DNA from: Ginglymostoma cirratum | Lineage: Eukaryota | Assembly (NCBI GenBank): GCA_024137785.1 | Contig: JAHRHZ010000022.1 | Span: 23,637,434 to 23,701,433, forward strand | Direction: 5' to 3' | DNA length: 64,000 nt | Shown here: positions 1 through 63,680 of the stretch, in pieces | Numbering within the stretch: position 1 is the stretch's first letter | Layout of the letters: every line of letters starts with the position of its first letter | Position numbers and translations under genes: made by a program | Notes under the pieces: model-generated | The model's database searches: none | Seen by the model: the letters and a program-made list of their open reading frames with translations, nothing else | What the model was told of the DNA's origin: nothing

Positions 1-67
1 AAACGTCAGCTTTCCTGCTCCTTGGCCTGCTGTGTTCATCCAGCTCTACACCTTGTTATCTCAGACT
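1..67 (+). mobile_element. Penelope-like element terminus fragment (family A), cut by the window edge
   Basis: AAACGTCAGCTTTCCTGCTC...GGCCTGCTGTGTTCATCCAGCTCTACACCTTGTTATCTC matches the copies at 19111-19203 and 45770-45835. Confidence 0.8.
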
Positions 68-2051
68 ATGTAAGCACCCTGATATTCTGCCCTGTCACAT
101 TTTGTGTGTCATCTTAGCTCTCATTGTATTCTTGCAGTCACATGTGTGTGGTCGTACATTAGAATCATAAGTGGTTAACAGATGGTCCTTGTCACCAGTA
201 ACCTTCCTCAGGTTTGTCCTGATGGCTAAGTTGCTGATGATATGGTGGACTGCTACAGCAAAAAAACCCATCATGACTGCATGACTCATGAAAGCATTAA
301 ACTAAATAATGCACTGTGATGGTAGCACACATTGAAGCGCATCTTTGAATGTATATCTAGCACCCACAAAGTGATGTGTGTGCAGCCAATGTAATCATAC
401 ACCTTGTGTATGAAGCTTGCTAGCCTGGTAAAACTGTGTGCTCACTTCTCTTAAGCCAGAAAGTAAAACATGTATTCTGTTCACTTCCTGTACACAGCTG
501 CAGTGTTTTCCCTCATCTGACAGTGGATCACAAACTGGGAGATATTGAAAACGTAGCACGTTTAAGCTAGAAGGAACTGGAAGCAAAAGAAAATCGAGGC
601 CGTAGCTACCTTTCAGAGTCATTGGCTGTGTCACGTCACCCTGCTTTGAGGCTTCAGATATATCTGCTCAACGCAGCATGTCTCACTAAGTACATGTCAC
701 TCAAATTTCACACACACTGTTCCTCACTGAGATTGAGCTCAGAGAAATGCTCTCTGGGCAGATATAGTCTCTGGCTTATCACTCTTCCTTCCTCCTCCCT
801 CTGAGCAGCTCATTTTCCTCAAAGTTGCCTCTGATCAGTTCCCCACCATGTCGCAGGCTTAGGGTGAGAGAAATTAGAGCACAGGAATGCTGTGAGAAGG
901 ACCCTAGAAGAGGGAACCTCCACCTTTTGCCACACCACTCCCTCTAGACTTCAACTTTAAGTAACAGTGCAAATCACCAAACACTATTACCCACTCAGCC
1001 ACAGGCTGTAGAAATCAATCAGCAAACATGGGCTAAACCAAGGTGTCTGTTGCAGCATTCACTTCAATAATATTTCTGTTCACATCATTATCTACTAATT
1101 TTGTCTTCTTCCACAGCACATTCCCAGGTACCATGTTGGCACTGGACAGGACTCACAATGCTAAGAAAACTGACATTACTCCAGCAGGATTTAGGCATTA
1201 GATATCAGTCATTAGACCAGATATCACACCATAACACATCACAACACATCCAGAATTCAAAGCATAGCCAACATCAGATAACATCCAGTATCACACCAGA
1301 TGTCACTTTTTTTTAAATTCAGAGATCAAACTGATATCCATATTGCATCTGATTAGTTATCACACTATTTAGCATATCATACACAGATATCACTACAGTT
1401 GTGATATTTGGTGTGTTACTCAGTGACTGTTGCTGTGATATACAGTTTGAGATCTTATTTTGATATAAGAAACAATAGCATTTAAGTGTGATCACCTGAT
1501 TGGATTTCTGCCAAACATTATTTTCTTTACCAATTCCACCATTTTCACAATGAATAACCAAAAGCATTGAAAAGATAAATAAGTGTTTAAAAGACTTTTC
1601 AGTGTTTTCCACTATCATGGAGATTAATCTCCAATTTTGGGAGATTTCAGTACTATCTTAGTTGGCTGACAACTATAGATGTGTGGTTCTGTGCCTCCCC
1701 GAGAAATGCATTGCACCAGGTTTCATCAGGGAGTTGATAGCCTATTCACTCACTAAATGTGGTTAGCCCCTTGACAACTTGGCAGCTAATGTTTTATCAA
1801 AAAAATGACAGAATGCCTAGAAGTGGCCTCCTGCTCTGGAAAGAATTGATGATGCCAACCAAAAATCCCTTTTAAAAGCCAATCAAGATAGTTGATCCAG
1901 CAATCCAGATTAATCAATTTAAATATGGACTGGCCCTTTAGAAATTGCACCACAGGCAGCTCACCATTCTCCATAACAATGGTCCAAGTTGATTGTAAAA
2001 GTTTACAATTTACAGTCAATGGAGATGTGGCCAACTACGGTCCTACCTTCA

Positions 2052-3360: not shown

Positions 3361-3441
3361 AGAGATAGTAGGAACTGCCGATGCTGGAGAATCGGAGATA
3401 AAACGTTGTGGAGCTGGATGAACACAGCAGGCCGAGCAGCT
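3361..3441 (-). mobile_element. Penelope-like terminus fragment (family A), truncated before the ribozyme core
   Basis: AGAGATAGTAGGAACTGCCGATGCTGGAGAATC...GAGCTGGATGAACACAGCAGGCC is shared with the other copies. Confidence 0.75.
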
Positions 3442-4659
3442 CGTTTTATAACATTATCAGCTTCCTTTTCCTATTGCACATAGGGGAAAGAGTTCGTCAG
3501 GCACTTTTCTTATTGGAACAGTTCAGAAACACAACTGAAAAGGGCACTAAGCTTTCCGGACAATACCACCGTGTCAGCACCAATGTGAGTCCGTAGTGAA
3601 TCTCCAGCTAGCTCAGGTATTTTCTCCAGCCAGCTCTGCAATGCTGCAGCATGTACTATATAGAGGAGCTGGTAAAGCTGCTAAAATTGGCTGCTAAGGG
3701 TTAAAGTGACAAAAGTCAGTTTGTTATGAAATCGAGGAGCGATTAACTGGACCAAATTGTACTTGAACTCGCACAGTTTAAGATACGGCTAGTGCTATTA
3801 ACATTTAAATTATTTGAACACTTGTGGATTTTACCAGTTCTTCAGTTTTTGTTTTGTCTTGAATGCTTCTGGTGGCTCCAACCTTTTTTTTAAAACAAAA
3901 ACACAAATCGAAACCAGCAGCACATTCGGCTCAAGCAGCAGGGAGTGAGTTCCAAGGCAACTTGTTCTAATAGGGTGATCTCCAGCAAACAGAAAGAAAT
4001 CAGCCCTGATCACAGAATAGTGCCTCAATAAACCTGACTCCCGCTGATTTGGAGGGGTGATGGAGAGGGGTCGGGGGGGGGGTTGCATTAATTAGTCGGT
4101 AGTCTTAGGTAGGAGAGTGGCAAGGAATCAATCGCTGTCTTAACACAGAATTTACCCTGATGCACTAGCCAATATTTATCCCTCAATCAACGTCACTAAA
4201 GCAGGTCATTATCACAATGCCGTGGGTTTTTTTTTAAAAGCATCAAATTTAAACATAGAAAGAGGCCACGAGACCCACTGCTCGTCTGTGCCGTGTCTCC
4301 TTCCTTGCTCTGCTTCATTTTCACCCTCACAGCAAATCCTGCTTAACCCCTTGTTATTTACAAACTAAGGCTGGGCCAAAGTGGCCTGTTTAAAAGTGCC
4401 TCAGCCGGCCCGGGTGAGAAGCCATCTGGTTGTGTTTCGCCGAGAGACTCTATGCCTGTGACAAACAGAGAGATAATGTCAGTGCAACCATCAACAGATA
4501 AAGCAACATCTGCTGCTCTTGACACCCACCATTGTCAGGCAAGTTTTATCTTTCCCTGTCCTCCCGTTAAACGCAGACAAACAGCTCCCTATATTGTATT
4601 TTGCCACGCAATTAGCACGCTTTCCTATCCACCCCAGACCTTCCCCCCCAACCCCTGAC

Positions 4660-4985
4660 CAACCCTCCCCGGAAATAAAAGCGGAACAATTCGCCTTTAA
4701 TAGCATCAGCTGCGGGAAAGAGTGGCACCGGTTGGTGTAACGGGGCTGTCAGTATTGAGCAGGAAGCAGGACACTTTCCACCAATAGTCATTGGCCAAGC
4801 GTGTAGAAGCCAATCGGCGGCTGTTTTCGCCTTCCGATAGGGACATCGCTGTTTTCCCGACAGTTCAGTGAGGCAGCGTGGCGGAAAATTGAGTCCAGAT
4901 TCATTAGGTTTCTTCAGTGCGCTGCTCAAGTCAGTTTAAATTGATACATTTCCTAACAAAATTGAAGTGCTTTCCGCGGTGCCAA
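4660..4985. promoter_or_regulatory. CpG-rich promoter-like region with CCAAT boxes and E2F-like sites
   Basis: CCAAT at 4781, ATTGG at 4790 and AGCCAATCGG at 4808-4817. E2F-like GCGGGAAA at 4712-4719, TGGCGGAAAA at 4879-4888 and TTTCCGCGG at 4971-4979. CpGs are retained against a depleted background. Confidence 0.55.
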
Positions 4986-5086
4986 ACGGAAAGGATTCTG
5001 ACCCTGATCGCCCCACTGAGCAGTCAGAACGAGTTGATGGATCCATTAGGCTTGCTTAGGCTGCTTTTCCTCTCTCTCCATCTCAG

Positions 5087-6139: not shown

Positions 6140-6700
6140 ACAGTGCAATACTGGGGGAGAGTTCGAAGGAGACTTCCAACCAGTCTTCCAACTGCCCTCT
6201 CAGGTAGATCTGAAAGATTCCTGGCCCTATTTGAAGAAGAACAGGAGATCCTTGGTATTCTGGTCCATACTTATCCCTCACTGAAACATGTCTGTTTATT
6301 ATCTCATTGCCGTTTTTGGGATCTTTATGGTGTAAATTGGTTGTTTGATCTCCTACATTAGTACAGTAACTAACTTTAAAAGTATTTCCAAACCAAAAGA
6401 ATTGCGGATGCTGTAAATCAGGAAGAAAAACAAAGTTGCTGGAAAAGCCCAGCAGGTCTGGCAACATCTGTGAAGGAAAAATCAGAGTTAGTGTTTCGGG
6501 TCCGGTGACCCTTCCTCAGTTCTGAGGAAGGGTCACCGGACCCAAAACGTTAACTCTGTTTTTAACTTCACAGATGCTGCCAGACCTGCCGCGGTTTTCC
6601 AGCAACTTTGTTTTAGTTCAAAAGTATTTCATTGGCTTTGAAGTGCTTTGGGACATCTCAAGGCTGTGAAAGGCACTATATAAATGTAAGTTATTTCTTT
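6140..6700 (+). mobile_element. DeuSINE (SacSINE1/AmnSINE1-like) interrupted by a Penelope-like hairpin
   Basis: Deu domain and tail CCTACATTA...AAAAGTATTTC|ATTGGCTTTGAAGTGCTTTGGGACATC...GAAAGGCACTATATAAATGTAAG. Confidence 0.7.
6389..6619. mobile_element. Penelope-like inverted terminus pair (family B) with two decayed hammerhead motifs
   Basis: Inverted repeat centred at CTTCCTCAG-TT-CTGAGGAAG (6511-6530). TSD AAAAGTATTTC at 6378-6388 and 6620-6630. Confidence 0.85.
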
Positions 6701-16383: not shown

Positions 16384-16780
16384 ATAAAAACCAAAAGAAC
16401 TGCCGATGCTGTAAATCAGGAACAAAAACAGAAGTTGCTGAAAAAGCTCAGCAGGTCTGGCAGCATCTGTGAAGAAAAAAATCAGAGTCAACGTTTCGGG
16501 TCTGGTGACCCTTCCTCAGAACTGCTTCCTCAGGCAGCAGTTTTGACATTTGAAACACTTCTGTTGTGCCAAAATTGATAATCTCATCAGAACTTTTCTT
16601 CTTTTCAGATCCTGCCAAGAGATGAGGAAGTCTAACCAAATCTCTGACCAGTTGTCCTTGACCAGATACTCGACCCAAAATGTTAACTCTCCACAGATGC
16701 TGCCAAAATGACTGAGCTTTTCCAGCAATTACCATTTTTGTTTCTGATTCATAGCATTTGCAGTTCTTTCAGTTTTTATG
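16384..16780. mobile_element. Two inverted Penelope-like family B termini with an intact hammerhead core on the minus strand (16486-16523)
   Basis: The minus strand reads AGTT-CTGAGGA-A-GGGTC-ACCA-GACCC-GAAAC-GTT-GACT. An older, more diverged opposite arm lies at about 16670-16780. Confidence 0.8.
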
Positions 16781-18400
16781 ACAACAGTTTGTCCCTGGAC
16801 CAGTTGTTCTCTGATTAGCCTCTCTGAATAAACTTGGTATAACTTGATTTCTCTTGGTCTGTTTGCAGTCTCTTGGAACTATTCAAGGACTTTCTGCTAG
16901 CTCAGTGATGTTTAATTCTAGACGTGCGAGCAGACACAGAAGTGAGAAATGTTGATTGTAAATCATAAAAACATTTTCTATGATCTGGCACTTTGTGTGA
17001 CGCAGTGTTGCTTAACACATACCATTAATCTTAAGAGTTATACCAACTGGACCTTTCAGTTTCATCTGTTTAAGATGCAAATTCTGTTCTCTCTGACATT
17101 GGGCGGCATGGTGGCACTGTGGTTTGCACAGCTACTTCACAGCACCAGGGACCCTGGTTCAATTCCAACCTCAGGTGACTGTCTGTGTGGAGTTTGCATA
17201 TTCTCCCCATGTCTATGTGGTTTTCCTCTAGTTGCTCTAGTTTCCTTCCGCAGCCCAAAGATGTTTGGGTTAGATGAATTGGCCATGCTAAATTACCTGT
17301 AGTGTTCAGAGATGTGCAGGCTAGGTGGATTAGACATGGGAAATGCAGGATTAGAGGGATTGGGTGGGATGCTCTTTGGAGGGTTGGTGTTAACTTGATG
17401 GGCTGAATGGCCTGCTTCCACACCATAGACATTCTATGATTCAATGTTATTCTATCTGAGAAGACAATGACATTCTCCCTTGCCTCAAGCTAAAAATTAA
17501 TCAGTTGTCCATCAACATAAACAGGTTCTGTTAAACTGGACTCAGCTGGATCACCTAATTTCACTAGAAATGCACTGGATATCTTTGTTAATACTTGTGG
17601 ATAGATCACTTTAACGTGTCTGTAAAAATAGGCATCTAACTTTGAAAAGGCATTGTATTTCTTCACATCTTCTGGAAATGACCTATAGTTTGACAGATGT
17701 AGCATTGTTTTATTCTGGCTGCACACTGCTTGTGTCTGTAGAGCTCTTTATTCCACAACACTGACACTGACTAATAGTATCTGCTTTTTGTCTCACCCTT
17801 TGTGTTGGCTTGTCCCATGCTTCTGCATTTTTTGTACTCTGTAAAATGAATAGGTTCAGCTCCTCTCTTGAGATAAGAATATATTTCATATTTCACGATT
17901 TGTCTGTCATTCTTTCTTGTCTCTAACTCCAGCACAATCTGAATTCCCCCAAAGTTGAATCTTCTTTGGACTGTAATACATCTGTTTTAGACTCTTTAAT
18001 AATCTTGAGAACCGTTCTACCTGTTTCAATTCTGATTTTAAAGCTCCATAGTCATAGATTTGCACTATTCTGTAAGAGATCATCAATTAAATTATCTATG
18101 GATTCTCCTGGATGCTGAATTCTTTGAATAAACATTGCTCTTTCAAGAATTTTATTTGATTTTGCATAAAAGTAATTGTCAAAAGCTTGCAGAACTGCAT
18201 CAAGAGTATCTGTGTTTTCATTTATGTTCTGATGATTTACAACATCATCAGCTATTGGTCTTGTATATGTATTTGTTCAGCTTTTGATTTATTATTTAGC
18301 TGTAAATCAATTCTGTACCTCAAGGACTATTTTCTCCAAGATGTCCAATCCTGTGTTTTATTTGGCCCATTTCTGATATAGAATACTTCAGGGAAGGCAA
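16780..18400 (-). mobile_element. Gypsy/Ty3 LTR-retrotransposon gag-protease fossil, interrupted by HE1
   Basis: Broken minus frames read WTSWRK*SLRYRI; VLQAFDNYFYAKSNKILERAMFIQRIQHPGESIDNLIDDL; YDYGALKSEL; zinc knuckle CAARIKQCYICQTIGHFQKM*; and a decayed protease region VYVDGQLINF*LEARENVIV (cf. FKLDTGADVTV). Confidence 0.85.
17101..17443 (+). mobile_element. HE1-type V-SINE
   Basis: GGGCGGCATGGTGGCACTGTGG...GGTTCAATTCC...TGTCTGTGTGGAGTTTGCATATTCTCCCC...GGGCTGAATGGCCTGCTTCC. Confidence 0.9.
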
Positions 18401-18551: not shown

Positions 18552-19203
18552 TTTCAGAGATAGTAGGAACTGCAGATGCTGGAGAATCTGAGATAACAAG
18601 GTGTAGAGCTGGATGAACACAGCAGGCCAAGCAGCATCAGAGGAGCAGGAAGGCTGACGTTTCGGGCCTAGATCCTTCTTCTGAAGAAGGGTCTAGGCCC
18701 GAAACGTCAGNNNNNNNNNNNNNNNNNNNNNNNNNNNNNNNNNNNNNNNNNNNNNNNNNNNNNNNNNNNNNNNNNNNNNNNNNNNNNNNNNNNNNNNNNN
18801 NNNNNNNNNNNNNNNNNNNNNNNNNNNNNNNNNNNNNNNNNNNNNNNNNNNNNNNNNNNNNNNNNNNNNNNNNNNNNNNNNNNNNNNNNNNNNNNNNNNN
18901 NNNNNNNNNNNNNNNNNNNNNNNNNNNNNNNNNNNNNNNNNNNNNNNNNNNNNNNNNNNNNNNNNNNNNNNNNNNNNNNNNNNNNNNNNNNNNNNNNNNN
19001 NNNNNNNNNNNNNNNNNNNNNNNNNNNNNNNNNNNNNNNNNNNNNNNNNNNNNNNNNNNNNNNNNNNNNNNNNNNNNNNNNNNNNNNNNNNNNNNNNNNN
19101 NNNNNNNNNNTGAAGAAGGGTCTAGGCCCGAAACGTCAGCCTTTCTGCTCCTCTGATGCTACTTGGCCTGCTGTGTTCATCCAGCTCTACACCTTGTTAT
19201 CTC
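18552..19203. mobile_element. Penelope-like inverted terminus pair (family A) spanning an assembly gap, with an intact hammerhead core at 18681-18710
   Basis: TSD TGCTTTGCATTTG at 18539-18551 and 19204-19216. Core reads CTGAAGA-A-GGGTCTAGGCCC-GAAAC-GTC-AG. Confidence 0.85.
18711..19110. other. Assembly gap (400 N)
   Basis: Run of N. Confidence 1.
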
Positions 19204-19439
19204 TGCTTTGCATTTGGAGCTGAGATAATCCAACAAAAAGCAAAGAATTCAGAAGGTTCTGCTTTCATTAAACTTGGGGAAGACAGATAATTAAAAACCT
19301 AGTTCAACTCTTGGGTAATCTGACCCCAACTTATATCACATAGCCCTCCAAACACACCACCCTTGATTCCTTACGCCACCCAGGCCTCTCAGAGCCACAG
19401 CCTCCTCTGCATCAGACATCCCAGATCCCAGTAGATTTC

Positions 19440-30019: not shown

Positions 30020-30272
30020 CCATTATCAACTTTCCTTTCTCTCTGGCATACTATCATCTATCCTTTTGTCTGTCTAACTGTTGTTCTCCCTCTGTCTGGG
30101 CTCCATCTCCTATCTACTCCTTCCCACCCCTGTCTTCAGCATATGTGCCACCTTTTCCTAGCTACAATCAGCTCTGAAGGATGGTCAAGGGACTTGAAAT
30201 GTTTAATCTGTTTTCTCTCCACAGGTGCTGCCAGATTTGCTGAGTTTCTACAGAAATTTCTGTTTTTATTTC
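30020..30272 (+). mobile_element. Penelope-like 3' end (family B) with a decayed hammerhead
   Basis: A pyrimidine-rich UTR followed by CAGCTCTGAAGGATGGTCAAGGGACTTGAAATGTT...CACAGGTGCTGCCAGATTTGCTGAGTTT. Confidence 0.65.
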
Positions 30273-31989
30273 CAAAGGCAGTGGCCACAGAAATAGTGGA
30301 GAGTCCAAAATCCTGTTCATTTGGGAAGTGTCCTGGTAGATCGGAAGGTAGCAGATGTAATCTCACTATTTAAAAGGAAAGGATGGAGAAAACCAGGAGT
30401 TATATACCAATGAGCAGAACATCCATCGGAAGGAAAACTGGAGTTTAATATTAAAGAGGTAGTAACAGAATATTTAAAAAATATCAACAGATTTACACAA
30501 AGTCAACATCAATTTATGAAAGGGATATTGTCTTTGACAAAGCTACTGGAGTTTTTTGAGGATGTATCTAGTCGAATAAATAATGGAGAACCAAGAAGTG
30601 TGGCATTGATTTGTGAGGAGGATATAAAGAGGCTTCAAAGTGATTTAAAATGAGTGGGCAAATGCATGGCAGATGCAGTCATGCTGTCCACTTTGGTAGG
30701 AAAAACAAAATGCTGCTATATTATTTTAATGAAAGTAATTTGGGGAAAATTGATATAAAAGTGGCCTTGGGTGTCCTTGTGCAGTAGTCCCGGAAAGCAA
30801 GCAGTAAGGTATGTTGGCCTTCACTGCAGGACAATTTGAATACAAGGAGGTTTTATTCCATCTGTATAGGGCCTTGATGAGACCACATCTGGAGTTTTGT
30901 GTGCAGTTTTGGTCTCATTACTTAAGGAAAGACATCCTTGCTACAGAAGGAGTGCAGTGAAGGTTCACCAGACTGATTCCTGAATAGAAGACTTCACATA
31001 CAAGGAGAGTTTAGGTTGACTGGGTTTGTATTCATTGTAGTTTAGAAGAACAAGAGGGAATCACATTGAGATGCATCATGTGCTGACAGGGCTGTATGGG
31101 ACTGGATACAGAAATGCTGTTTCCCTTACCCAGGGATGGAGAGGGTGAGAGGAATAGGACTTCTACAAAGGTGTCATAGTCTCTCAAGCTATGTTGTAGG
31201 ACTGAGATGAGGATCACTTTCTTCCCTCAGAGGGTGGTGAATCTATGGAATTCTCTACCACAGAATGCTGTGGAGATGAAGACACGGAATACATTGAAGA
31301 AATAAATAAATACATTTCTAGAAGCTAAATATGTGAAGGGGCCTGATGAAAGCAGGCGTATGGCATTAAGGATAACAAGCATGGGGCTGGATGAACACAG
31401 CAGGTCAAGCATTAATGGTAAAGCAGGCTCGATGAGCTGAAAGGCCTATTCCTGCTTCTGTTTTCTTTATTTCCATGTCAGTAAAATACAAGCTGTGGGG
31501 CAAAAGGGCCTTTAAATGTGACCTAACCCACAAACTACCCCATATGGAGTAGGTAACTAATCCAGTTCCAGCTCAGTTCCAGGGATATCCCTTAGAAATG
31601 GTAATGAATCAAGAGCCATTGCTCCCAGCTAGACCCCTAACTTTAGCTCTCCCCTGCATCTGGCAATTTTGGTTTTGCACTATCACAAAGTATCAAATAT
31701 GATGCAACATGATCTGATGTGTCCCTGGGTGAAATGGTGTTTTCCAGTTGTAGAGGGTCACTTTGGGGAATTAGTGCAAAGGAAATCTCACACTCCTCTG
31801 GCTTAAACCAGATGAGACTTTTAGAAGCTCTTAGTGTCTCTAAGGATATTAAAATGCACACAACTGTGATTAGTATTTTAAGCTGGCTAGTCTGTGTTTC
31901 TTTTGAATACATCAATTGCTTCATGTGGACTATCTGACGGCTCATCATCCTGAAATTTCTTTATTGCTGTTCTTTCAGTGTTTGCTTTA

Positions 31990-38490: not shown

Positions 38491-39554
38491 ATTTCCTCTC
38501 TTCACAGATGCTGCCAGACCTGCTGGATTTCTCCAGCATCCTCTGCATTTGTCCCATGGTTACAGTTCTGTCTTTGTTCAATACTCGGCCAAGTGCTTTA
38601 CTAAATACTGCTGTGTTTCTTTTTATTGAAACATTTTAAAACATCACAAACCTGAGATATTTGTTTAACATCCATCATGATGTGTTGGCATTGGCCCTTA
38701 GTGCCCTTCCACATTTCTGGGAAGACTTTGTCCAAAAACTAGATTCTGGCAAAGTGAGTTTGGAATTCTTATTGTGTTAAAGCCCCTTGTTTTTATACTG
38801 CAAGAGCAAGTGCAGGATCCCATCTAATTGAACAGACTCCTAAATCTTCTTCAAGATCTGTGTCTGACCTCTTGTCTGCATGGCAGCAGAAGCAAGCCTT
38901 TTAAACAGTGGCAGTCATCTTTTATATACATTCAGAAATGTATTAACAATTAATGCTGAGGTTCCATTTATAATCACAGGCTCCAATCTGGTTTCTGTAA
39001 TTAGCCTTTTCCTAATATTTGCCCACAGAACAGATTAATAGCTTCCTCCTGTCCAGCTCCCTCCCCAGAGGGTTTTGCAAAATCATTTTGAAATGGTGCG
39101 TTTGATAGTTCTGGAGTTGCCATACAGCTAATAGAATCAGATTTAAATTTTTACAGCAGTCTCCAGAATGGCAGGCCAGCTTTCTCTTCCAGAGATTCAA
39201 GCACCTATTGAGGGTATGCTGCTTTGCCAGAGATGCCATCTTTCAGATGCATTATGACACTGATGCCCCGTTTTCCCTGTCAAGTGGGCTTTAAAAAGCC
39301 CAGAAAGTGTTTCAAAGGAAAACAATGGGGTTTTCTCCAATGTTTATCCCTCAACCGATGCCTAAAACAGATTATCTTGTCATTATCCTATTACCAACTC
39401 ATTTTCGAGGCTACAATAGTGTCTACAACTCAGTAATATGTTATTGGTTCTAAAGGGCTTTGGAACGTCTTGCGATCATGAGAATAGTAACTCCAATAGT
39501 AACTCCAAGCCCCTTTACTGCATGACTCTTATTCCTATTTTCTCTGATTATCCC

Positions 39555-42509: not shown

Positions 42510-43165
42510 GATATGTGTGTACACGTGTGTGTGGGTGTTTGTGTACAGTGGTATGTGTATGAGGGGCTGGGTGTGGGGCGTATAGTGTGTGCGTGCGTGG
42601 ATGGGTGAGTATGCACCTTTGTTGTACGTGTTGTGCGTGTGAATGTGTTTGTGCCTGCAGACCTGTACGTATAGATGAGCGTGTGTGGCTGTATGTAATC
42701 ACAGATGTTTGTGCAGATGTTTATATGCAAGTGTGTGTGTAGATATGTGTGTGAATGTGTGGATGTGGATGTGTGTGTGCAGATGTTTTTGTGTGCAAAT
42801 CTGTGTGCGTGGATTTGTGTATGTCGATATACGTGCGGACTAGTGTGTGCAGATGTGTATGTGTGGAAATTTTATGTGGATATGTGTGCGTTTGTGTGTG
42901 TGTGGGTGCAGATGTGTGTATGTGTATGTATGCATAAGTGTATTACGCAGATGTATGTGCGGATGTCAGTGCGTAGATCTGTGCGTACCAATGCGTGTAT
43001 GTGCGGATGTCAGTGTATAGATCTGTGCGTACCAATGCGTGTATGTGNNNNNNNNNNGTGCGGATGTCAGTGTATAGATCTGTGCGTACCAATGCGTGTA
43101 TGTGTGGATGTCGGTGTATAGATCTGTGCGTACCAATGCGTGTATGTGTGGATGTCTGTGTGTGC
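42510..43165. repeat. TG-rich low-complexity tract ending in a 44-bp minisatellite (about 42950-43155) with a 10-N gap
   Basis: Unit GTATGTGCGGATGTCAGTGTATAGATCTGTGCGTACCAATGCGT. GATCT occurs at 42976, 43020, 43077 and 43121; N at 43048-43057. Confidence 0.9.
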
Positions 43166-44972: not shown

Positions 44973-45093
44973 TGAGAGAAGTAAGAACTGCAGATGCTGG
45001 AGTCAGAGATAACACAGTGTGGATCTAGAGGGACACAGCAGACCAGGCAGCATCAGAAAAGTTGACGTTTCAGGTCAGGACCTTTCTTCAGAA
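44973..45093 (-). mobile_element. Penelope-like terminus (family A variant) with a decayed hammerhead
   Basis: The minus strand reads TTCTGAAGAAAGGTCCTGACCTGAAACGTCAAC. Confidence 0.7.
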
Positions 45094-45625
45094 GATTTTG
45101 AAAGAAATCATTCTAGGGTTGTGTGCATGGTGGGGAGGGGAGGAGCCAGGATGGTTGAGACAACTAAAGGAGAGAGTAAAAGGCTGCCAGTTCCTCAGGT
45201 AGGCCAGGTGGAAAGCCTGACTCAGGGCTTCAGAACTGTATTCAAAGTTTAACAATAAAGATTAAACTATTAAATGCCACCCTTTACTCTTCCATCTCCA
45301 TGCCAAACCACTTATTATCCAACATGGATATAACTTTGGAGGCAAACTGACAGAAAAAAAAATCAGTCTCTTGGTGATGTCACTATTGAAAGAAGCACAT
45401 TCTCATTGATACAAAACTCAGCCAATTCAGTAAAATTGCTTCAATTAATCCCTCGTATAAATGAATAATTTCACTTAAGTGCTTGATCTGTTATGCCAAC
45501 AAATATTTTCATTCAATAAGCAGTTGCTGCTGTCCATCAATAGGCATCTCATTATGAAAATGATATTTTCATTAATATATCATTCAGTACAGGCACACTT
45601 CCACAGTTAACAATCTTAACAGGGA

Positions 45626-45835
45626 TAGTAGGAATTGCAGATGCTGGAGAATCTGAGATAACAAAGCACAGAGCTGGATGAACACAGCAGGCCAAGCAGC
45701 ATCAGAGAAACAGGAAGGCTGACGTTTTGGGCCTAGACCCTTCTTCAGAAAATAAGGATTTAGGCCCGAAACATCAGCCTTCCTGCTCCTCTGATGCTGC
45801 TTGGCCTGCTGTGTTCATCCAGCTCTACACCTTGT
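45626..45835. mobile_element. Penelope-like inverted terminus pair (family A)
   Basis: TSD AATCTTAACAGGGA at 45612-45625 and 45836-45849; the arms are inverted around about 45755. Confidence 0.85.
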
Positions 45836-46165
45836 AATCTTAACAGGGACTCTTGAACCCCACACCCCAGCAAAAGGAATCCCTGATAGTCACTTCCAAA
45901 GGATAGCTGAGACCTCCCCAGTTGATTCCTGACTCCCATTTCTGAGTTGCTCTGTGTCCATACCTGTACGGTTACCTCAGCTCACCAAAGCAGTATTCTG
46001 TCACATACAATGGAAATGTACTCACACTGGTCTAATGTGTTCACATCAGATTCCAAACACCAAACTCTGATTTTAGTGGAGGGGGAATGGGATGCTACCT
46101 CTCAGAAACTTATATACACAAATCTTGGCCCACTCCACATCCCATCCCTGCAGAAATGAGAAATC

Positions 46166-46297
46166 AGAGATAAAAGGTACTGCAGATGCTGGAGAATCCA
46201 AGATAACAAGGCGTGGGGCTGGATGGACACAGCGGGTCAAGCAGCATCATAGGAGCAGGAAAACTTGATGTTTCGGGCCTAGACCCTTCATCAGAAA
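46166..46297 (-). mobile_element. Penelope-like terminus (family A) with a CUGAUGA hammerhead core
   Basis: The minus strand reads TTT-CTGATGA-A-GGGTCTAGGCCC-GAAAC-ATC-AAG. Confidence 0.8.
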
Positions 46298-46419
46298 TCC
46301 AAGTTTGGGAGCAGGACTCTGGGATTCCTGACTTCTTCTGAATTTTCTTTACTACATTGGAGGTTCTTTCTGTTCATGTTGAAAATCATGGATTGAGTTT
46401 ATCCAAAACATCAGAAATA

Positions 46420-47879: not shown

Positions 47880-48103
47880 TAGACAGTAAATTGCTGCATA
47901 ATCCTTGCATGCTGTTCTCTGCACAATTGGAGCAGGTAATGAGGGGTTTCTGGATACTGAAGAGCTAGGAAAGCAGCTGCAATCTTCTGGGGAGGAAGAT
48001 GAAGACATTGAGCAGGAAGGATATCAATATTATCACGATAGTGTGGTGCAGCATTGGGCACAACAAGTCAGGAATGACTGAATTGAAATCTGCTTCCAAT
48101 TGA
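47880..48103 (+). mobile_element. PIF/Harbinger transposase C-terminal remnant
   Basis: CIILACCSLHNW (cf. IIxACCxLHN), an acidic stretch EEDEDIEQE, and the end VRND*IEICF. Confidence 0.7.
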
Positions 48104-48108
48104 TCGAA

Positions 48109-48315
48109 GATAACAAGGTGTGGAGCTGGATGAACACAGCAGGCCAAGCAGCATCATAGGAGCAGGAAAGCTTGACGTTTCGGGCCCAAAACCCTCAGGG
48201 TCTAAGCCCAAAATGTCAAGCTTTCCTGCTCCTCTGATGCGGCTTGGCCTGCTGTGTTCATCCAGCTCCACACCTTGTTATCTCGGATTCTCCAGCATCT
48301 GCAGTACCTATTATC
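48109..48315. mobile_element. Penelope-like inverted terminus pair (family A)
   Basis: TSD TCCAAT(T/A)GATCGAA at 48095-48108 and 48316-48329. The near-identical ORFs on the two strands reflect the palindrome. Confidence 0.85.
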
Positions 48316-51099
48316 TCCAATAGATCGAAACTGGGTTAAGTTATTATTTGTTGACTATAAATCTGTTGCTGCTTCAACCACTGTTTAATCCCAAAAGCAA
48401 GCACTTTTTTTTATTGCTGCTTCTTTACTTTTCCAAAGTTAACAATTGTTGAAAGGCCTCACAACTTCTGATGCTCAGATACAGAGAAAGTGTAGCACTC
48501 CTTCAGCAAAGGATTTAACATCACATGGTGCTCTAAACAGTAGCTGCTGTCCCTTGAATCTTCATCCTTCAGCTAAAATGACAGACAATCAGGCAAGTGA
48601 TGATTTAAATTGCAAATGTATTTGCATATCTAATAATCTATTTATAATGAATGTCAGCCATGGTGCTCTCAGAAGGTTTCTTATTCCCTTTTCCTCCCAC
48701 TGTGTCCAGGTGCACTCCCAGAGACCACAGTTTTGGTGGAGTGATCTTGTCCAATAGTGGATCCTGTTTGCCTTGAAGGGTCACTGGACTTGACATGCAA
48801 ACTCTGGTTTTCTCTCCACGTAGCCTTTATGTCTTTCTCGCTCATCCAGCTTCCTCTTAAATGCTTCAAAGCTATCCCTCTCAATAATTCTTCGTTGTCA
48901 AAAGTTCCACATACTAACTACTCTCAGCAATTTCTAACTCATATTCAGTAAGCACACTGATATCCTTTTCCTTTTCATCCACTTATTCACCTGTTCTGCA
49001 TTCCTGATTACTTCAACAGTGTGCTGCCTTTAGCCAAACAGTAAACATGTTCCATGTTACAGAACAGGGTGAAAAAGCAGGAGATTTTCCATTGACTGCT
49101 GAGAATCAGAAATAATTGTCCATCCAATTTAATATCTGTGCTGAACATCTATAAAACCAAGGAACAAGAAAGACTGAGTTATCAGGAATACAGGCAAGAA
49201 AGGAAATAAAATTAATTTTGCAACACTTTGATGTTTGGCATCATGATAGAGGGTTGAAATTTGAATATGCTGCAGACACCTTGAAAATGTTCAATCAGGA
49301 GAAGGAGTGATGCTTAGAGACTGACAGGCTGAGGCAGTGTGTCACGGCGAATGAAAATCTATTTCCCTACAAGGAAACATGAAGATTGTTTCATTACAAG
49401 CCTTTTACAAAGTGAATGTATATTGAAGTTTTGTGAGGTCTGTCGGTTTTAGGTCTTTGTGACTGACTGACTACCCAGAACTATTTGGATCTTGACAGAC
49501 ACCAGAACACAGGCACTGCAAATTGATCCTTCTATTCAACCCTGAGATTTCATTTACAACCATGATCTCGTGTGTCATAATGTGTTTCTCTGACACAAGG
49601 AAAGCATCTAATAAAATAGTTTTTGGACAATACAGGAGTCACTTCTTTTTTAACTATATGTTAGACATCATAGCAAATGGGTCAAAAAGCAACTTTAACT
49701 TCAATAGAGAGGGTGAGCAATACTCTTCTTACTGAGATCTTTCTATTCTTTCCTAACGGTCTCCAAGTAAGAAAGTGAGAGGACGATTGATCCCATGCTT
49801 CTGCCAATGGCACGCTAAGCATCGCAGTCTCTCAGCGCTGCAATCTCTAGTATCACAGTCTCTTGCCATTCTTTTATGCTGCTGCAAAGCTTCCTCCCAC
49901 TTTATTTAATTCTATTAGCATATCCTTGTCACATTTTCTCCATTATGCAAAATCTATCCCCGCCTTAAATTGATCAGTGCCAATTGACTCAACTGCTCCA
50001 AGTGGTAACAATTCCACAGGATAACCACTCCCTGGATAACAGGATCTGAATGAAGGAAAGCTATCACAGTGGAAGTGATCAAGAGCCTTTGGTTTAATAG
50101 GGGAGTTTATCATCTGATCCTTTGGCATGTTACTCACTATACCCACCTGCTGAGTCAGTAGGTGCAGGGTTTGAACTCCTTCCCCACACAGACCTGCAAA
50201 TACAGACTGGAACTCCAGTTCTCAATCCCTGGCTGACACCCGGACACTTTGATCTGATTGTGGGTTGCCATCCCCACCTTCAGCAAAAGGATTGTGAGAG
50301 TCCCTAAAAACATTCTGTGGGTCTCACTATTAGAGTAGAAATATGGCTTTGACCATTGTAAACTGTGTCCAAATGCATGGGAGAGGTGGCCTGTTTCAGA
50401 TTGTACAGAAAGGACTATTTTAGAAAGTGGCATCAGAACATGAGTAGGCCAATCAGCCCCTTCAAGGTTATTCTGCCCTTCAATCAGATCATGCTCAATT
50501 TGTACCTAACTTTATTGACTTGGCTATTACACACTTTTCCCCTTACCCAACAAAAAGAAGGATAATTTATGTCTTATGCATCTAACATGGAAAGAAACAT
50601 AAAAGGAATAGTGGCACATAATTGTAAGTTAGACTATGACATCATTGGTCACTTGCTGAGAGTCAGCTTCACATAGATTCAGAGGTAGATTTTGTTATTT
50701 TCCTTCGGACAACGTTGATGAGCAGGGGAGAACTGGTCTTGGTCAAACCAACCGAGTGGCTAAATAAATGCAACTATTTAAATTGGAATAAATAATTCTC
50801 AGGGTGTGGCCTTCATTGGCTAGCCTTTGCTCTGCTGAGGAGATAGTGTTGCACTTTGTACTTTAATTGCAGGTAGTGGTTCTGATATTACTCAGTAGCT
50901 CATTGGGCCATTTCAAGAAGAAGCTGAGGGTTAACCATGTTGGTGTGAGGCTAGAATCAGATACAAGCTCAGATCGGGTAAACCCTCCTTCCCGTAAATA
51001 GACATTTATCAACACAGTCTTATATGATTCACACCCACTGATAATGGGAATTTTATTTCCATATTGTTTATTATCGGGATGATGAATCACAATGCCAAA

Positions 51100-54012: not shown

Positions 54013-54890
54013 GTACTTTTAACTGATGTTGGTTGAGCAGTAATGATGGCCAGGACACCAGTGAATATTCCTTTGCTCTGCTTCAAACAGTGTCCAGAAG
54101 GGTAGATGTAGCACGTTCAATGGGCAGTACTTCCGACAGGGCAGCACTCCCTCATTATTGCACTGGAGTGCCAGCTACGATTCTCTTCTCAAGTCTCTGG
54201 AACACAACCTCCTGACTCAAGAAGATAGACTTCATGCAACAGTTATGCTTAAAAATGCTCCTAATTTGTAAACAGAAACTCTTAGGTACTGTCTCTTATG
54301 GGCAAAATCTCCTCAGCCCCTCAACAGCATGGGTTATGGTGAGAAATCTGGGAAAATTAGGTGTGATGTCAAGCAAGGCCCTTCTCAACGTTGGGACCAA
54401 AAAATCACATTTTCCAACCAGGTTCTGGACACCAAGATGACATTCTCACCAGTGAGCAGGAAGAGGCTGATTAACAGGAATTTGCGGTTCATTATCCTTC
54501 ATCATTATGTAAAGCTCAAATTATTAATATGGTGCTCTCCCATCCTCCCACCATCTGAATAGAAACTGAAGACTGAGAATTTCTGTCATGAAGTCCCTAG
54601 CAACTCTAGCTCACCGCTTCCTCCTCCAGACCATCATCTTGGGTACCAGTCAGTAGTATCTCGGGGCATGCTCTACAGGCAGTGCCATTAGTATCTCTTG
54701 TCCATAGATGTTAGCATCTGACACAAACCAACCTCACTGCAGCATGATGACACATTGCCAATCTACAGTATACTTCTCCACTTCAGGTCTGTACATTTGA
54801 GTGCACTGGCAACTCTCATTGCAATGCTGCTGCAAGGATATTGTGTGTATTTGGACAGTGCACAGACTGGACCAGGTTGTATCTCAGGGT

Positions 54891-55022
54891 TTCTGAAGAA
54901 GGGTCCTGACCCAAAACATCAACCTCCCTGCTCATCTGATGCTGCCTGGCCTGCTGTATTCTTCCAGCTCCATACTGTGGTATCTCCAACTCTAGCATCG
55001 GCAGTTCTTACTATCACGCTCT
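54891..55022 (+). mobile_element. Penelope-like terminus (family A variant) with a decayed hammerhead
   Basis: TTCTGAAGAAGGGTCCTGACCCAAAACATCAAC..., with G12 changed to A. Confidence 0.75.
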
Positions 55023-55351: not shown

Positions 55352-55410
55352 AGGGTTAGGGTTAGTTAGGATTAGGATTAGTTAAGGTTAGTGTTAGAGT
55401 TAAAGTTAGG
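55352..55410 (+). repeat. Degenerate TTAGG(G)-like repeat
   Basis: AGGGTTAGGGTTAGTTAGGATTAGGATTAGTTAAGGTTAGTGTTAGAGTTAAAGTTAGG. Confidence 0.6.
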
Positions 55411-56246
55411 TAAGTCAAAGACAGTCTTCAATATCAGTCCAGAGGCTTGGCCACAGCCAGTCAACCATTCAAGATGTCCAGGTTTGGTGGGCAGGGTGGT
55501 GGAGTCCATATCATTACAGTCTGGGGAGAGGGTCATAGTCACCCCATGGGTCTTGTGCATCCAGCCCAAGCCGTTGCTGTACAGGTGGGAGGCTGTACAG
55601 GTATCAATCTGGATCTGTGCACTCACTGCTCAGGGCTGCCTGGCTAAGTCACTCCATGGGGTGGGCCATTGTCAGTACTGCAGGCCAAAAGTCAAGAGGG
55701 CTGGTTACCAGGGGCCAGTTACTGGAGGAAGCTGAGGAATTTAATTGTGGGGATTAGAGTCAGACAGCTAGGATGCAGAGGGGTTATAACTGTGAAGTTG
55801 TCTGAAGTGGTCAAAGGAGGAATGTATAAGAAGGGTTGATGAGGGGGTTGTGCGAGGTAGTGTAAGGGATGGTGTGGGGGTGTCATTGCCTGTAAACAGC
55901 ACCCTGCCTTCCATCGGGAACAGTGGGATACTAGATCTGTAATGTTGATTTGCTATGCCTGGGGCTAGGAAGTAAAGATGAAGATTTAGATTAATAGGCT
56001 GGGTGGAGACTAGGGGTAATTCATAGTCTATGGGGTTAACAGGAAGGAGCTACCATGAAGGGAATGTGTCCGTTTAAGTATTGCTCAGCAGCAGTGAGAA
56101 TCTGAGGCTGAGATTGGCTGTTTGTGGAGCAGGTGCTTTTGCCTTCCATCAGCTGTGAAGAACAATCACAATGGAGATGAACAGGGGTAACAAGCATGGG
56201 GCTGGATGAACACAGCAGGTCAAGCAGCATCACAGGAGCAGGAAAA

Positions 56247-56280
56247 CTTGACGTTTCGGGCCTAAACCCTTCATCAGAAA
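56247..56280 (-). ncRNA. Minimal type I hammerhead ribozyme motif with an intact core, in a Penelope-like terminus (about 56185-56280)
   Basis: The minus strand reads UUU-CUGAUGA-A-GGG-UUUAGG-CCC-GAAAC-GUC-AAG. Helix I is UUU/AAG and helix III is the palindromic ACGU. Confidence 0.7.
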
Positions 56281-56707
56281 TGAAAATGGCTGCTTCCCCG
56301 AAATGGGGATGGGGAAGATGTTTCCTTCTGTGGGGGGGGGGGGGGTTCAGTTTGAGGTATGTGAGGCCCTTTCAGAGGACAACAGCATTATACAGACATC
56401 CACAGTGAGTACTGCATGTTTTATGAACCTTAGGCATGAGCCACCTGTGTAGACTACAAATCCCTGTCCCAAACACTCTGTGTACCTTAAAGAAACGTTG
56501 GGGGTGGGTGGGTGGTGGGGAAAGGCAGGATTTGTCTGTGTTGCCTCCTCCCACTGGGTGCCTACTGTTTCCACCCAGACTCCTTGTGAGGAACAGGCAC
56601 CTGGAATGAGGTCAGGGTCCCTTGTCCCACGGTACCCTTGCTGTTGATGCTGAATTCTAATGGCTGGAATGACGTGATGGAGTGTGGGTCCATGCGCATA
56701 TCCAGCT

Positions 56708-56829
56708 AAGGGTCTAGGCCCGAAATGTCAGCTTTCCTGCTCTTCTGATGCTGCTTGGCCTGCTGCGTTCATCCAGCTCTACACCTTGTTGTCTCAGATT
56801 CTCCAGCATCGGCAGTTCCTATTATCTCT
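56708..56829 (+). mobile_element. Penelope-like terminus (family A) truncated inside the ribozyme
   Basis: AAGGGTCTAGGCCCGAAATGTCAGC...CTCCAGCATCGGCAGTTCCTATTATCTCT. Confidence 0.8.
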
Positions 56830-57509
56830 GATACAATTTTAACCCTACTGCAAAGCCTCTTCTAAGGATGCCTGACTCTGAAACTGCCTGACCTGGTTGT
56901 CCATGGCAGCCACTAATCTCTGTCCATTTAGGCAGCCGGAGACTCACATGTCAAAGGCACCCAGTTGGGTTGCTGCAGCCTGTGTCAGGTAGTCCTTGGG
57001 AAACCTCCCTGCTTCTCCTGTGTCTCCTGGGGCATTTGTATGGGGTCCTCTCATACTCGGGGCTGAGTAGGTAGCTCCTCCCTGTTAACCCCATAGACAA
57101 TGAATTACCCCTAGTCTCCACCTAGCCTAGTAATCTAAATCTTCATCTTTACTTCCTAGCCCCAGGCATATCAAATGAACATTACAGATCCCTGCATTGC
57201 TCTGAGCTGATGTCCTGGGGGTGGGGTTCTTCCTCAGCCAGCTGCAGAGGTGTGGCAGCGAAGTGCTCACCAGTAGGTACTCCTGGCTCCCATCTAGCCA
57301 ACACCCCGGATCGAGGGAGTCAGTATTTGAGCTGGTGGAGCGTACAGGAGGCAGCTTTGTCAGCGCTTCCCCTGAGGGATCCGCGCTGTCTTCCCCAGAG
57401 GAAGAGGAGGCCATGTCTTGTGGCATTGCCCTCCCAATCACAGGGATTGTGCTCATGCTGCTGATACTGCAAGGAGACAAGAGAGAGAGAATGAGTCATG
57501 AAGAATTGT

Positions 57510-57625
57510 AGATATAACAAAGCGTCGAGCTGGAGGAACACAGCAGGCCAGGCAGCGTCAAAGGAGCAGGAAAGCTGACGTTTCACACTATGTTATCTCT
57601 GACTCCAGCATCGGCAGTTCTTACA
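57510..57625. mobile_element. Short Penelope-like inverted fragments
   Basis: ATAACAAAGCGTCGAGCTGGAGGAACACAGCAGGCC...GCTGACGTTTC, then TGTTATCTCTGACTCCAGCATCGGCAGTTC. Confidence 0.7.
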
Positions 57626-58028
57626 ATGACTGAGCAAGAATTGCAGCGTGGTAATAATACGCTCACTGTGGGCGAAATAGGAAAGTCGTGCAGCAATGAG
57701 CAATGCTTCCTCCTTGATTGCCAGGATTTTAGGTATCTCAGCATCACCACATTCCTGCTCCCGGTCTTCCAGACAGGGTCAATATCCTCCCCTTGTAGGG
57801 GAGCCCACTGTTGAGTCAATACAGTTGCTTTCCCCTGGAATGAGGGGAGAGATTGAGTGAGGTGACAGTGAATGGATGACACGATACTTGGTGCAGGTGT
57901 AGGTGGAGGAAGGGTGGTAACGTGTCCCTAGTGACAGAAAAGGCATTGCCGGTTTAGTAGGGTTGGAGTAGGTGAGTAGCAGAAACAGGGTGAGTGTGAG
58001 TGAGCAGGGATACAATGGTGGTAGATAC

Positions 58029-58235
58029 CCTTGCAGAGCACAGAAGGTCATTGACCCTCTTGCGGCGTAGTTGGCTGTTCCTCCAGACTATGGAGACTGC
58101 ACTGAGGGAAACCTCAGACCAAGCTGGCAGGATCTGGGTGTCGTGGCCACCTATGCTGCTGGAGGGGCAAGAGGACACCCTCCTGTGTACCCCTCCTTCC
58201 CACCTCCAAATGCCTGTCCGCAAAGTGGGGCGGAC
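58029..58235 (-). pseudogene. Myb/SANT-like (trihelix, NAIF1/MSANTD-type) DNA-binding domain exon of a Harbinger element, frameshifted
   Basis: PHFADRHLEV in one frame, then PAWSEVSLSAVSIVWRNSQLRRKRVNDLLCSAR, ending at an AGG|GT donor. Confidence 0.75.
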
Positions 58236-59399
58236 AATTTCCCTTTGTCCCCCTACCACAAGTCTCCAACGGTGCAAGGTAGCAGTAGATGGCCAGCTCT
58301 TGGCTAGGTATGTCCAATGGCCTTTTTGGGTTTGTACCCGCACCAGGGATCCCAAGATATCCCAGCAGTGGTGAGTATTTACGTGAGGGAGATTTGAGGC
58401 AAGTAGAGGACCACAGGGGTGCCACAGGGACAGGCTGAGGTAATTGATGAGGCGGCTTTGTAACGGTGTCGCGAGAAAACAAGCTCAGCCTCGCCGAGAG
58501 AAATCCTCGTGAAACTCAATGAAATTGACACTTCAGCTGATTTTTGGTCTCTATCCCTTTGCTTTCATTAATTTCTCCTTCAGACATCTTGTAGATAGTT
58601 TTCAACCTTGTTGATATCTGATATGTACCTTGACTTCCCACCCCCCACCTGCTGCAGAGCCAGTCAACTCTCTCCCATCATCAGCCACTGACAGTCTTCC
58701 CATGTAGCAATCACAGTTAAACCGTGAGATTGCATGCATCAAAATGAGAAAGAGACCTTTCATCTTTGAGGGCTGAAGACAGGTGTCGCGCTGTTTTCAC
58801 AATCCTGCCTGTTGGAGGTCCCCCGGACATACTGGAACCACAGAGACTAGCTGAGTTTGCTGATGAGCTTTTAAAAATAACTATTCACTTGTATAAATGT
58901 CCCAGTTACATAATCACTCCAGCCCCATGGCTGGATTAATATAAACCTCACACACAGAAACATGTAGGCACACACATACAAATGCCTGCAGAAATATGTG
59001 CATACAGTCATATGTATGCGCACACGTAGAGACACACGTACATAAACGCACATAGACATACATGCACATGCTGACAAGGCAAGGAGATCAAAGGTTACCA
59101 GGGGTAGGTGGGAATGTGGAATTTGAAATACAAATTGATCAGCCATGATCTTATTGAATGGCACAGCAGGTTCGACTATCTACTCCGGCTCCTATTTCAG
59201 ACGCATGTTCATACAAGCCCTGACATAATGAGGCAATTCAGGCCATTGTGCCTGTTGAATGTGCAATCCAATTAGTCCCACTCCAATATACTTCCCCTTT
59301 CGCACTCAAAACATCTCCCTTTTGAATGTTATTAACGCACCTGCTTTTACAGTCACTGTATTTATTTTGCTGAATCAATTAAGCTTCTCATCAATGATA

Positions 59400-63189: not shown

Positions 63190-63680
63190 CAACCTCTGGA
63201 ATTTGTAAAATGCTTCATGGCCAATAGAGTGCTATTGTGTACCCTGTGTTGTAATATCAGAAACAAGTAGTCAATTTGCGCAGAGCAAGGTCCCATAAAT
63301 GACAACAAAATAGTTTTCCAGATAATCAGCTTTTTAGTGATGATGTTTGTGTTTTTACATTAGATGCGATGCTATGCTGTCCTTTGAAATATTGCCTTGG
63401 GATCTTTTAATGTTTACTTGAGAGGGGAGGTGGAACGTCAGTTTAAAGTATCATATGCAAATCAGCAACGCCCAGGCACTCCCTCAGGACTAGGTGAATG
63501 ATGATGACGGGTCTAGGCCCGAAACGTCAAGTTTTCCTGCTCCTATGATGCTGCTTGACCTGCTGTGTTCATCCAGCCCCACGCTTGTTATCTCGGATTC
63601 TCCTGCATCTGCAGTACCTTTTATCTCCCTCAGGACTGCACTGTATGCTCAGGTTTCTGGAATGTGACTGGAATTCACAA
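63190..63680 (-). mobile_element. DeuSINE interrupted by a Penelope-like terminus
   Basis: GCAAGGTCCCATAAATGAC...CAGATAATC...GCACTCCCTCAGGACT|...|GCACTG. Confidence 0.65.
63492..63624 (+). mobile_element. Penelope-like terminus (family A) with a near-intact hammerhead
   Basis: ATGATGA-C-GGGTCTAGGCCC-GAAAC-GTC-AAG, lacking C3. TSD CTCCCTCAGGACT at 63479-63491 and 63625-63637. Confidence 0.85.

Follow-up and report, generated by a model that had tools for sequence, protein, structure and literature searches.

Minimal hammerhead motifs in truncated Penelope-like elements of Ginglymostoma cirratum and a recurrent 5' boundary at their front edge

Hammerhead motifs in the window

The window, the whole 64,000-nt stretch of Ginglymostoma cirratum DNA analysed here, carries on its minus strand (56277-56250) a minimal type I hammerhead composed of CUGAUGA, an extra A, a 4-bp helix II, GAAA and CGUC; hammerhead positions follow the conventional numbering. 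A first-pass annotation had reported a complete core at 56247-56280, with CUGAUGA and GUC, which was confirmed on this strand. The motif lies in the 3' terminus of a Penelope-like element (PLE), one of many such termini in the window (Table 1; family names are our labels).

A profile search of the window, with profiles made from intact seeds, detected 25 termini in 20 units, or one unit per 3.2 kb, near the previously proposed density of about one Penelope-like terminus per 4 kb. Only four of the 25 are intact, that is, with the core, the closing pair of helix II and the helix III palindrome: 56277(-), 16519(-), 18681(+) and 45091(-). All ten positions named in the first-pass annotation belong to family members, and the complete cores claimed at 18681-18710 and 16486-16523 are intact, but the copy at 45065-45093, which had been called decayed, has an intact core, its closing pair being A-U. 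Helix II does differ between families and still pair, as had been stated; the loop quoted for 16486-16523 was off by one base, and is the loop of the copies at 6491-6550.

Table 1. Hammerhead and PLE features of the window (positions counted from the first letter of the window)
Feature	Position	Strand	Remarks
Minimal type I hammerhead	56246..56281	-	predicted cut 56250/56249
Helix I of this hammerhead	56281-56278 with 56249-56246	-	4 bp
CUGAUGA of this hammerhead	56277-56271	-
Extra A of this hammerhead	56270	-
Helix II of this hammerhead	56269-56258	-	GGGU/GCCC
GAAA of this hammerhead	56257-56254	-
CGUC of this hammerhead	56253-56250	-
5'-truncated 3' terminus, young PLE subfamily A1	56188..56282	-	hammerhead plus ~62 nt to short fixed 3' end; 5' break at -5 from C3
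Terminus without core	1..75	+
Terminus without core	3362-3440	-
Fold-back unit, head-to-head, family B	6403..6625	both	each core with one mutation; predicted 93-bp hairpin
Family B terminus, intact core	16400..16523	-	GUU triplet, 4-bp helix I
Opposite arm, without core, of 16400..16523 terminus	16668-16763	+
Fold-back unit, family A2	18557..18710	both	core intact on plus arm (18681), broken on minus arm
Continuation of 18557..18710 fold-back past N gap 18711-19110	19111-19212	+
Old family B terminus	30170..30273	+	core broken
Terminus without core	31363-31411	-
Terminus without core	38497-38566	+
Family C terminus, core intact	44980..45093	-	closing pair A-U; helix I of only 2 bp
Fold-back unit, family A2	45624..45845	both	tail on one arm; ~11-13 bp flanking direct repeat (target-site duplication); predicted 84-bp hairpin
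Family A1 terminus with tail	46167..46298	-	core intact; CG-to-CA change breaks helix III palindrome
Fold-back unit, family A1	48087..48315	both	both arms truncated within core; predicted 87-bp hairpin
Terminus without core	48775-48819	+
Family C terminus with tail	54889..55016	+	G12 mutated
Family A2 terminus	56708..56828	+	truncated within core
Fold-back unit without cores	57504..57627	both
Family A1 terminus with tail	63502..63625	+	truncated at C3

The 400-N gap at 18711-19110 sits within a PLE fold-back, and many of the young fold-backs sampled adjoin N runs, so the assembly likely undercounts them. Other repeats in the window include a 121-nt inverted repeat (55934-56054 and 57070-57190, 95% complementary, 1015 nt apart) that encloses two PLE termini, a degenerate short telomere-like array of period 16 (55354-55410) and a 44-bp/CA-rich minisatellite containing a gap of 10 N (42700-43160).

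The window holds eight occurrences of the pattern CUGANGA-N8-30-GAAAC, where shuffled sequences gave 1.0 +/- 1.0 (none of 100 shuffles reached eight), and a fuzzy family motif matched 12 times, with no match in each of 10 random controls. The motifs share with the minimal hammerheads of PLEs (PMC4209133) the type I conserved core CUGANGA...GAAA with a UH cut site, the extra base after A9 (between 9 and 10.1), the G10.1-C11.1 pair, the palindromic 15.2-16.2 (CG in most families, GC in family F) without a loop III, the short helix I, the presence of several families per genome, and an arrangement mostly as solos or close together on opposite strands. They differ from them in helix II, which is 4-5 bp here. 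Among 16 motifs, hand-picked from intact ones in a choice that favours helix II pairing, the core was invariant, 87.5% of 112 cells were paired and 22 changes affected both sides, while none of 500 shuffles was as high and slid controls for helix pairing reached at most 53%. The compensation in helices I and II across families suggests that the fold was maintained in master elements.

It is extremely improbable that the motifs are chance matches, or that they are non-functional as hammerheads even in master elements, since the core is invariant while helix I and II pairs compensate across distinct families, reversed-pattern controls gave no matches, and the terminal-repeat location matches that in other PLEs; this has to be set against folding z-scores near zero, a helix I that in families A2 and C measures only 2-3 bp, and an Rfam scan of the window that returned no hammerhead family at E <= 1, which we attribute to motifs too minimal for the Rfam models. 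Weak Rfam matches of the fold-backs to miRNA precursors, under the gathering scores, were dismissed as hairpin artefacts.

The parent element, its abundance and insertion anatomy

The genome from which the window comes (4.36 Gb) was searched, and near-identical copies of the A1 terminus were found. A set of 29 copies besides the window's own, chosen by likeness to the query, showed one common 3' end and staggered 5' ends, and the longest copies extend into coding sequence for a reverse transcriptase (RT) and a GIY-YIG domain. At locus L031 (4355-6634) there is an open frame of 760 aa, counted as open frame with the native start codon not located, that contains RVT_1 (E 3.8e-07) and GIY-YIG (E 2.6e-05) matches, both above the Pfam cut-offs, and a C-x4-C-x2-C linker. 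The hammerhead lies ~260 nt downstream of the stop codon in the ORF that encodes RT and GIY-YIG, and the Penelope-like origin assigned in the first-pass annotation therefore stands, the motif being located in the 3' ends of copies that reach this ORF. In families A2, C and B, too, the longest copies run upstream into similar terminal-repeat and ORF-like sequence. Related tandem copies with 80-85% identity were found at L031 and an inverted 5'-truncated copy at L033, and among the four extended loci there was no complete single-subfamily pLTR-ORF-pLTR copy.

A CX2-5CxxC linker between RT and endonuclease (EN) marks the Neptune and Nematis PLEs (Craig et al. 2021, PMC8557442), and only Neptune and Poseidon have been reported among vertebrate PLEs (Li, Clavereau, Pollet 2026, 10.64898/2026.07.22.740005). 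On its linker motif, and not on a tree, the element is likely to belong to the Neptune clade. It resembles the Neptune EN+ PLEs (PMC8557442; Arkhipova et al. 2013, PMC3846280) in the RT, the linker and the C-terminal GIY-YIG, as well as in the heavy 5' truncation, adjacent inverted copy, tail of 30-40 bp at one end and short target-site duplication (TSD). The motifs are very probably minimal type I hammerheads in the 3' ends of 5'-truncated EN-bearing PLEs, likely Neptune, and likely inert in host RNA.

Further hammerhead families were found in the sample (E, F, G and H). In family F (L119:7425-7466, L139:5867-5908, L058:8064-8105) the helix III palindrome changed from CG to GC and the helix I strands are compensated. 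Family G (L068, L071, L102, L170, L173) has a distinct hammerhead with a longer helix II and a GC-rich helix I, and in L170 it lies near a PLE frame of another type, possibly a Poseidon-type element.

Exact genome-wide counts gave 55,274 A1 cores and 95,868 matches to a degenerate intact-core descriptor, with none for the reversed controls. By this one descriptor there is one intact core per 45 kb, or about one per 90 kb per strand. Termini of any state were counted in a sample of multi-exon genes found by laminin-G and spectrin domain matches (17 inferred genes, with bounds set by the domain matches and not by an annotation), which holds 381 termini in 1.32 Mb between exon matches, or one per 3.5 kb; a further 64 were found in 188 kb beside the window. 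Intact cores are therefore about ten times sparser than termini, and extrapolation from the gene sample gives roughly a million termini in the genome. For comparison, ~4,000 PLE hammerheads were reported in coelacanth and ~9,000 in Xenopus (PMC4209133), although the descriptors differ from ours and the genome is larger here; supplementary file 2 of that paper contains no shark terms. Literature searches, at the level of titles, returned no paper on shark PLE hammerheads or on their intronic strand bias. The element class, the motif and the fold-back architecture were already known, and what this genome adds is the scale and the regularity of the 5' ends.

Within the gene sample, 74 pairs of termini (148 of the 381) are arranged head-to-head within 60 nt, against four tail-to-tail and seven direct pairs, while a SINE control gave two head-to-head and one tail-to-tail among 151 copies. 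Among solo A copies, 11 of 35 are flanked by direct repeats of at least 7 nt, as are 15 of the 61 fold-backs, against ~0.8 after shuffling, and the TSDs measure ~7-17 bp. The 3' ends form two groups ~35 nt apart, one near +92-98 and the other at or beyond +120-125, and fold-backs often carry the longer 3' end (the tail) on one arm only. Truncation, inverted truncated copy, tail of 30-40 bp and short TSD are thus all present, in agreement with the insertion pattern described for EN+ PLEs (PMC8557442, PMC3846280), and the two 3'-end groups fit two internal starts of reverse transcription, as in the Anolis Poseidon element PAc (Frangieh et al. 2024, PMC11167929). Other points in common with PAc are an uncut template and the lack of RNA-seq ends at the cut site; PAc belongs to another clade, and was studied by assay where our data are a sequence analysis.

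The 5' boundary at the front edge of the hammerhead

Termini were aligned to long references, and 303 5' ends within 60 nt of C3 were retained, window copies included and N-adjacent ends dropped. Of these, 138 fall at -6 to -1, just before CUGA, against 15 expected under a uniform distribution, which is a crude null, and chance matches blur the ends by 1-2 nt. The excess was found in families A (49/113), B (70/149) and C (19/41); the B and C references diverge upstream, which may inflate their peaks, but the A peak is secure, since long copies of this family align to -320. Solos alone gave 11/35, 34/70 and 6/16 for A, B and C, respectively, and an independent sample beside the window placed 19 of 46 5' ends at the boundary. 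Contig C1 followed the same pattern: of its first 30 intact cores, 12 end at -8 to -1 (two of them beside N), none at -9 to -91, and 18 run further. Upstream of the break, the copies listed showed either unrelated host DNA or the inverted arm.

Definition of these ends by ribozyme cleavage was rejected because the cut site holds 13 of the 303 where 15 were expected, with no excess. A splice-acceptor origin was considered as well: B copies and some of the C copies have an AG in front of helix I, which A copies lack. The avoidance of the cut site together with the accumulation at the front edge supports uncut RNA as the template in vivo. Candidate causes of the boundary are a template RNA that ends at the foot of helix I, a polymerase that stops at a small predicted upstream hairpin (in A) or at a pyrimidine tract, and an endonuclease that might cut AT-rich sequence there, the Anolis enzyme having a preference for ATT (PMC11167929). 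In the full-length RNA, the first part of the core is predicted to base-pair with a 6-8 nt inverted match lying ~25 nt upstream (L031:6860-6900); this match is missing from short copies and could be an off-switch or a polymerase stop.

We tentatively propose, as a possibility that is rather less probable than its negation, that insert length is set by the fold of the hammerhead rather than by its cut, through a template end, or a stop of the RT or endonuclease, at the foot of helix I. If so, a length set by the fold would mass-produce ribozyme-bearing stubs of 100-130 nt and fold-backs, and would give the PLE hammerhead, whose role has been described as unclear (PMC8557442), a non-catalytic one; the estimated million genomic ends would then be a read-out of PLE reverse transcription. 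A boundary at the hammerhead edge was not found in the literature searched, although the supplements (PMC11167929 Fig. S2, which may show a 5' drop in PAc; PMC4209133 file 1; the 2026 preprint) may cover it. The descriptions of the Neptune EN+ PLEs consulted (PMC8557442, PMC3846280) do not mention a sharp end of this kind, and the inserts here differ from these in being mostly of 100-130 nt per arm. The boundary is a specific feature to be explained in the existing in vitro system (PMC11167929).

The short inserts might also constitute a separate non-autonomous family, similar to SINEs or retrozymes and amplified from its own short masters. Lengths are bimodal (53 short, 42 long and 5 other among 100 core-bearing A copies, pooled), the TSDs around short units are clean, and PLE-derived non-LTR retrozymes with type I hammerheads have been described, also in one chondrichthyan (10.64898/2026.07.22.740005). 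Against this, each of the six common sequence types is represented among short copies as well as long ones, suggesting that short copies are likely made repeatedly from ordinary masters, and in three of five multi-copy groups the bodies of short and long copies are identical; moreover, the 5' ends are scattered over several nt. Retrozymes consist of direct tandem repeats with a hammerhead per unit, whereas the termini here are dispersed solos and inverted pairs: no such array was found in the window, and close direct pairs are rare in the gene sample (7, against 74 head-to-head). A separate short family is thus quite unlikely.

Under the preferred reading, in which the short copies derive from ordinary PLE masters, the protein of the element would nick host DNA and reverse transcription would begin downstream of the ribozyme, at either of two internal sites. 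The uncut ribozyme would be copied through, with about half of the core-bearing copies ending 1-6 nt upstream of CUGA, and the product would be inserted singly or as a fold-back. In masters, the fold likely helps to process tandem element RNA, aided by the element protein, and after insertion the cores would decay like the neighbouring sequence.

Hammerheads in host RNA

The first-pass annotation had also proposed that same-strand copies in long introns could dimerise via the palindromic helix III and cleave pre-mRNA, which, if frequent enough, would be a layer of host RNA processing little studied in sharks. The abundance of intact cores is in favour of this proposal, as is the finding that three of the 140 sampled stretches (10 kb) hold at least two intact sense termini. 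However, the average distance between intact neighbours on one strand is tens of kb, and the predicted dimer helix, an ACGU duplex of 4 bp, has an energy of -1.7 kcal/mol. In the predicted monomer the active helices (-4.0 kcal/mol) compete with an inactive fold (-9.3 kcal/mol), which is preferred by 5.3 kcal/mol, and the predicted fold-back hairpins of 84-93 bp bury the motif.

Termini are abundant in polyA RNA, where 41,734 reads mapped on the element, with a depth of ~10,000 in the hammerhead bin, but there was no site at which many molecules begin or end. This was established from a single polyA run, labelled with the species of the best-matching genome, with no strand signal, at a threshold of one fifth of the local depth, and is blind to nascent and short RNA; a second RNA run, which gave only 19 reads, and two contig runs, which cannot show ends, were left out. 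Reads that cross fold-back centres do exist, and the many fold-backs would, by prediction, supply transcripts with a large amount of 80-90 bp double-stranded RNA. Lunse et al. reportedly observed dimer cleavage of PLE hammerheads. Published activities include weak cutting even as dimers (PMC4209133), cleavage of one of nine Xenopus dimers (10.64898/2026.07.22.740005), and, in Anolis, cleavage only with the PLE protein, dispensable for insertion in vitro, and no RNA-seq ends at the cut site (PMC11167929).

A strand test was based on the 140 stretches between same-strand exon matches of the 17 inferred genes (1.319 Mb without N). All termini were divided into 196 sense and 185 antisense, and 360 of them (families A1, A2, B and C) were classified. 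The depletion of intact cores from the sense strand that had been predicted was not observed, with 29 sense and 23 antisense (95% CI of the sense share 0.41-0.70; intact against the rest, p 0.55), and the sense:antisense counts were 28:28 for intact cores with flawed helices, 45:50 for broken cores and 83:74 for core-less termini. Intact termini that have at least 3 bp in helix I and lie outside a tight fold-back, the most competent class, showed 19:7 for sense (p 0.03, uncorrected; 11:5 at a 4-bp helix I), which could be read as retention, but this is one of many slices, runs opposite to purging and is not relied on. The controls were also unbiased, with 163:133 for a CR1-like LINE and 59:64 for a SINE, so that the test lacks a positive control and its power, with 52 intact termini, is modest; weak selection could hide rare cutting. 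Xenopus hammerheads are depleted from introns, in a study where strand was not examined (10.64898/2026.07.22.740005).

Decay of the cores points in the same direction, since the A2 core mismatch rate (22/490, ~0.045) is close to the background measured downstream (137/2841, ~0.048). A1 cores showed 0/370 mismatches at non-CpG core positions against ~4% downstream, a difference that may come from alignment anchoring and subfamily mixing. With sparse intact cores, no sense depletion, a short dimer helix and no accumulation of read ends, we regard a pre-mRNA-cutting layer as highly unlikely. With so many copies, a test across the whole genome could settle whether vertebrate pre-mRNA tolerates minimal hammerheads, and this pilot indicates tolerance.

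A search for host genes gave no Pfam match, and thereby no host exon, in 178 of the 184 stop-to-stop frames of at least 70 aa in the window, nor in 130 of the 137 unmasked frames of at least 85 aa in the 100 kb on each side (six and seven simple-repeat frames, respectively, were omitted); short exons are missed by such a frame search, and the window was therefore not placed in an intron. The region at 4300-5000 is CpG-rich, looks non-repetitive and may be a regulatory element. On the minus strand, a decayed frame at 57957-58484, without Pfam match, resembles the gene for the Myb/SANT-like protein of PIF/Harbinger DNA transposons, and a possible exon lies at 57127-57465 (-), with a strong-looking splice acceptor near 57465. 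The repeat at 17100-17440 (+), with a tRNA-like head and presumably a SINE, had 151 matches in the gene sample and served as the strand control.
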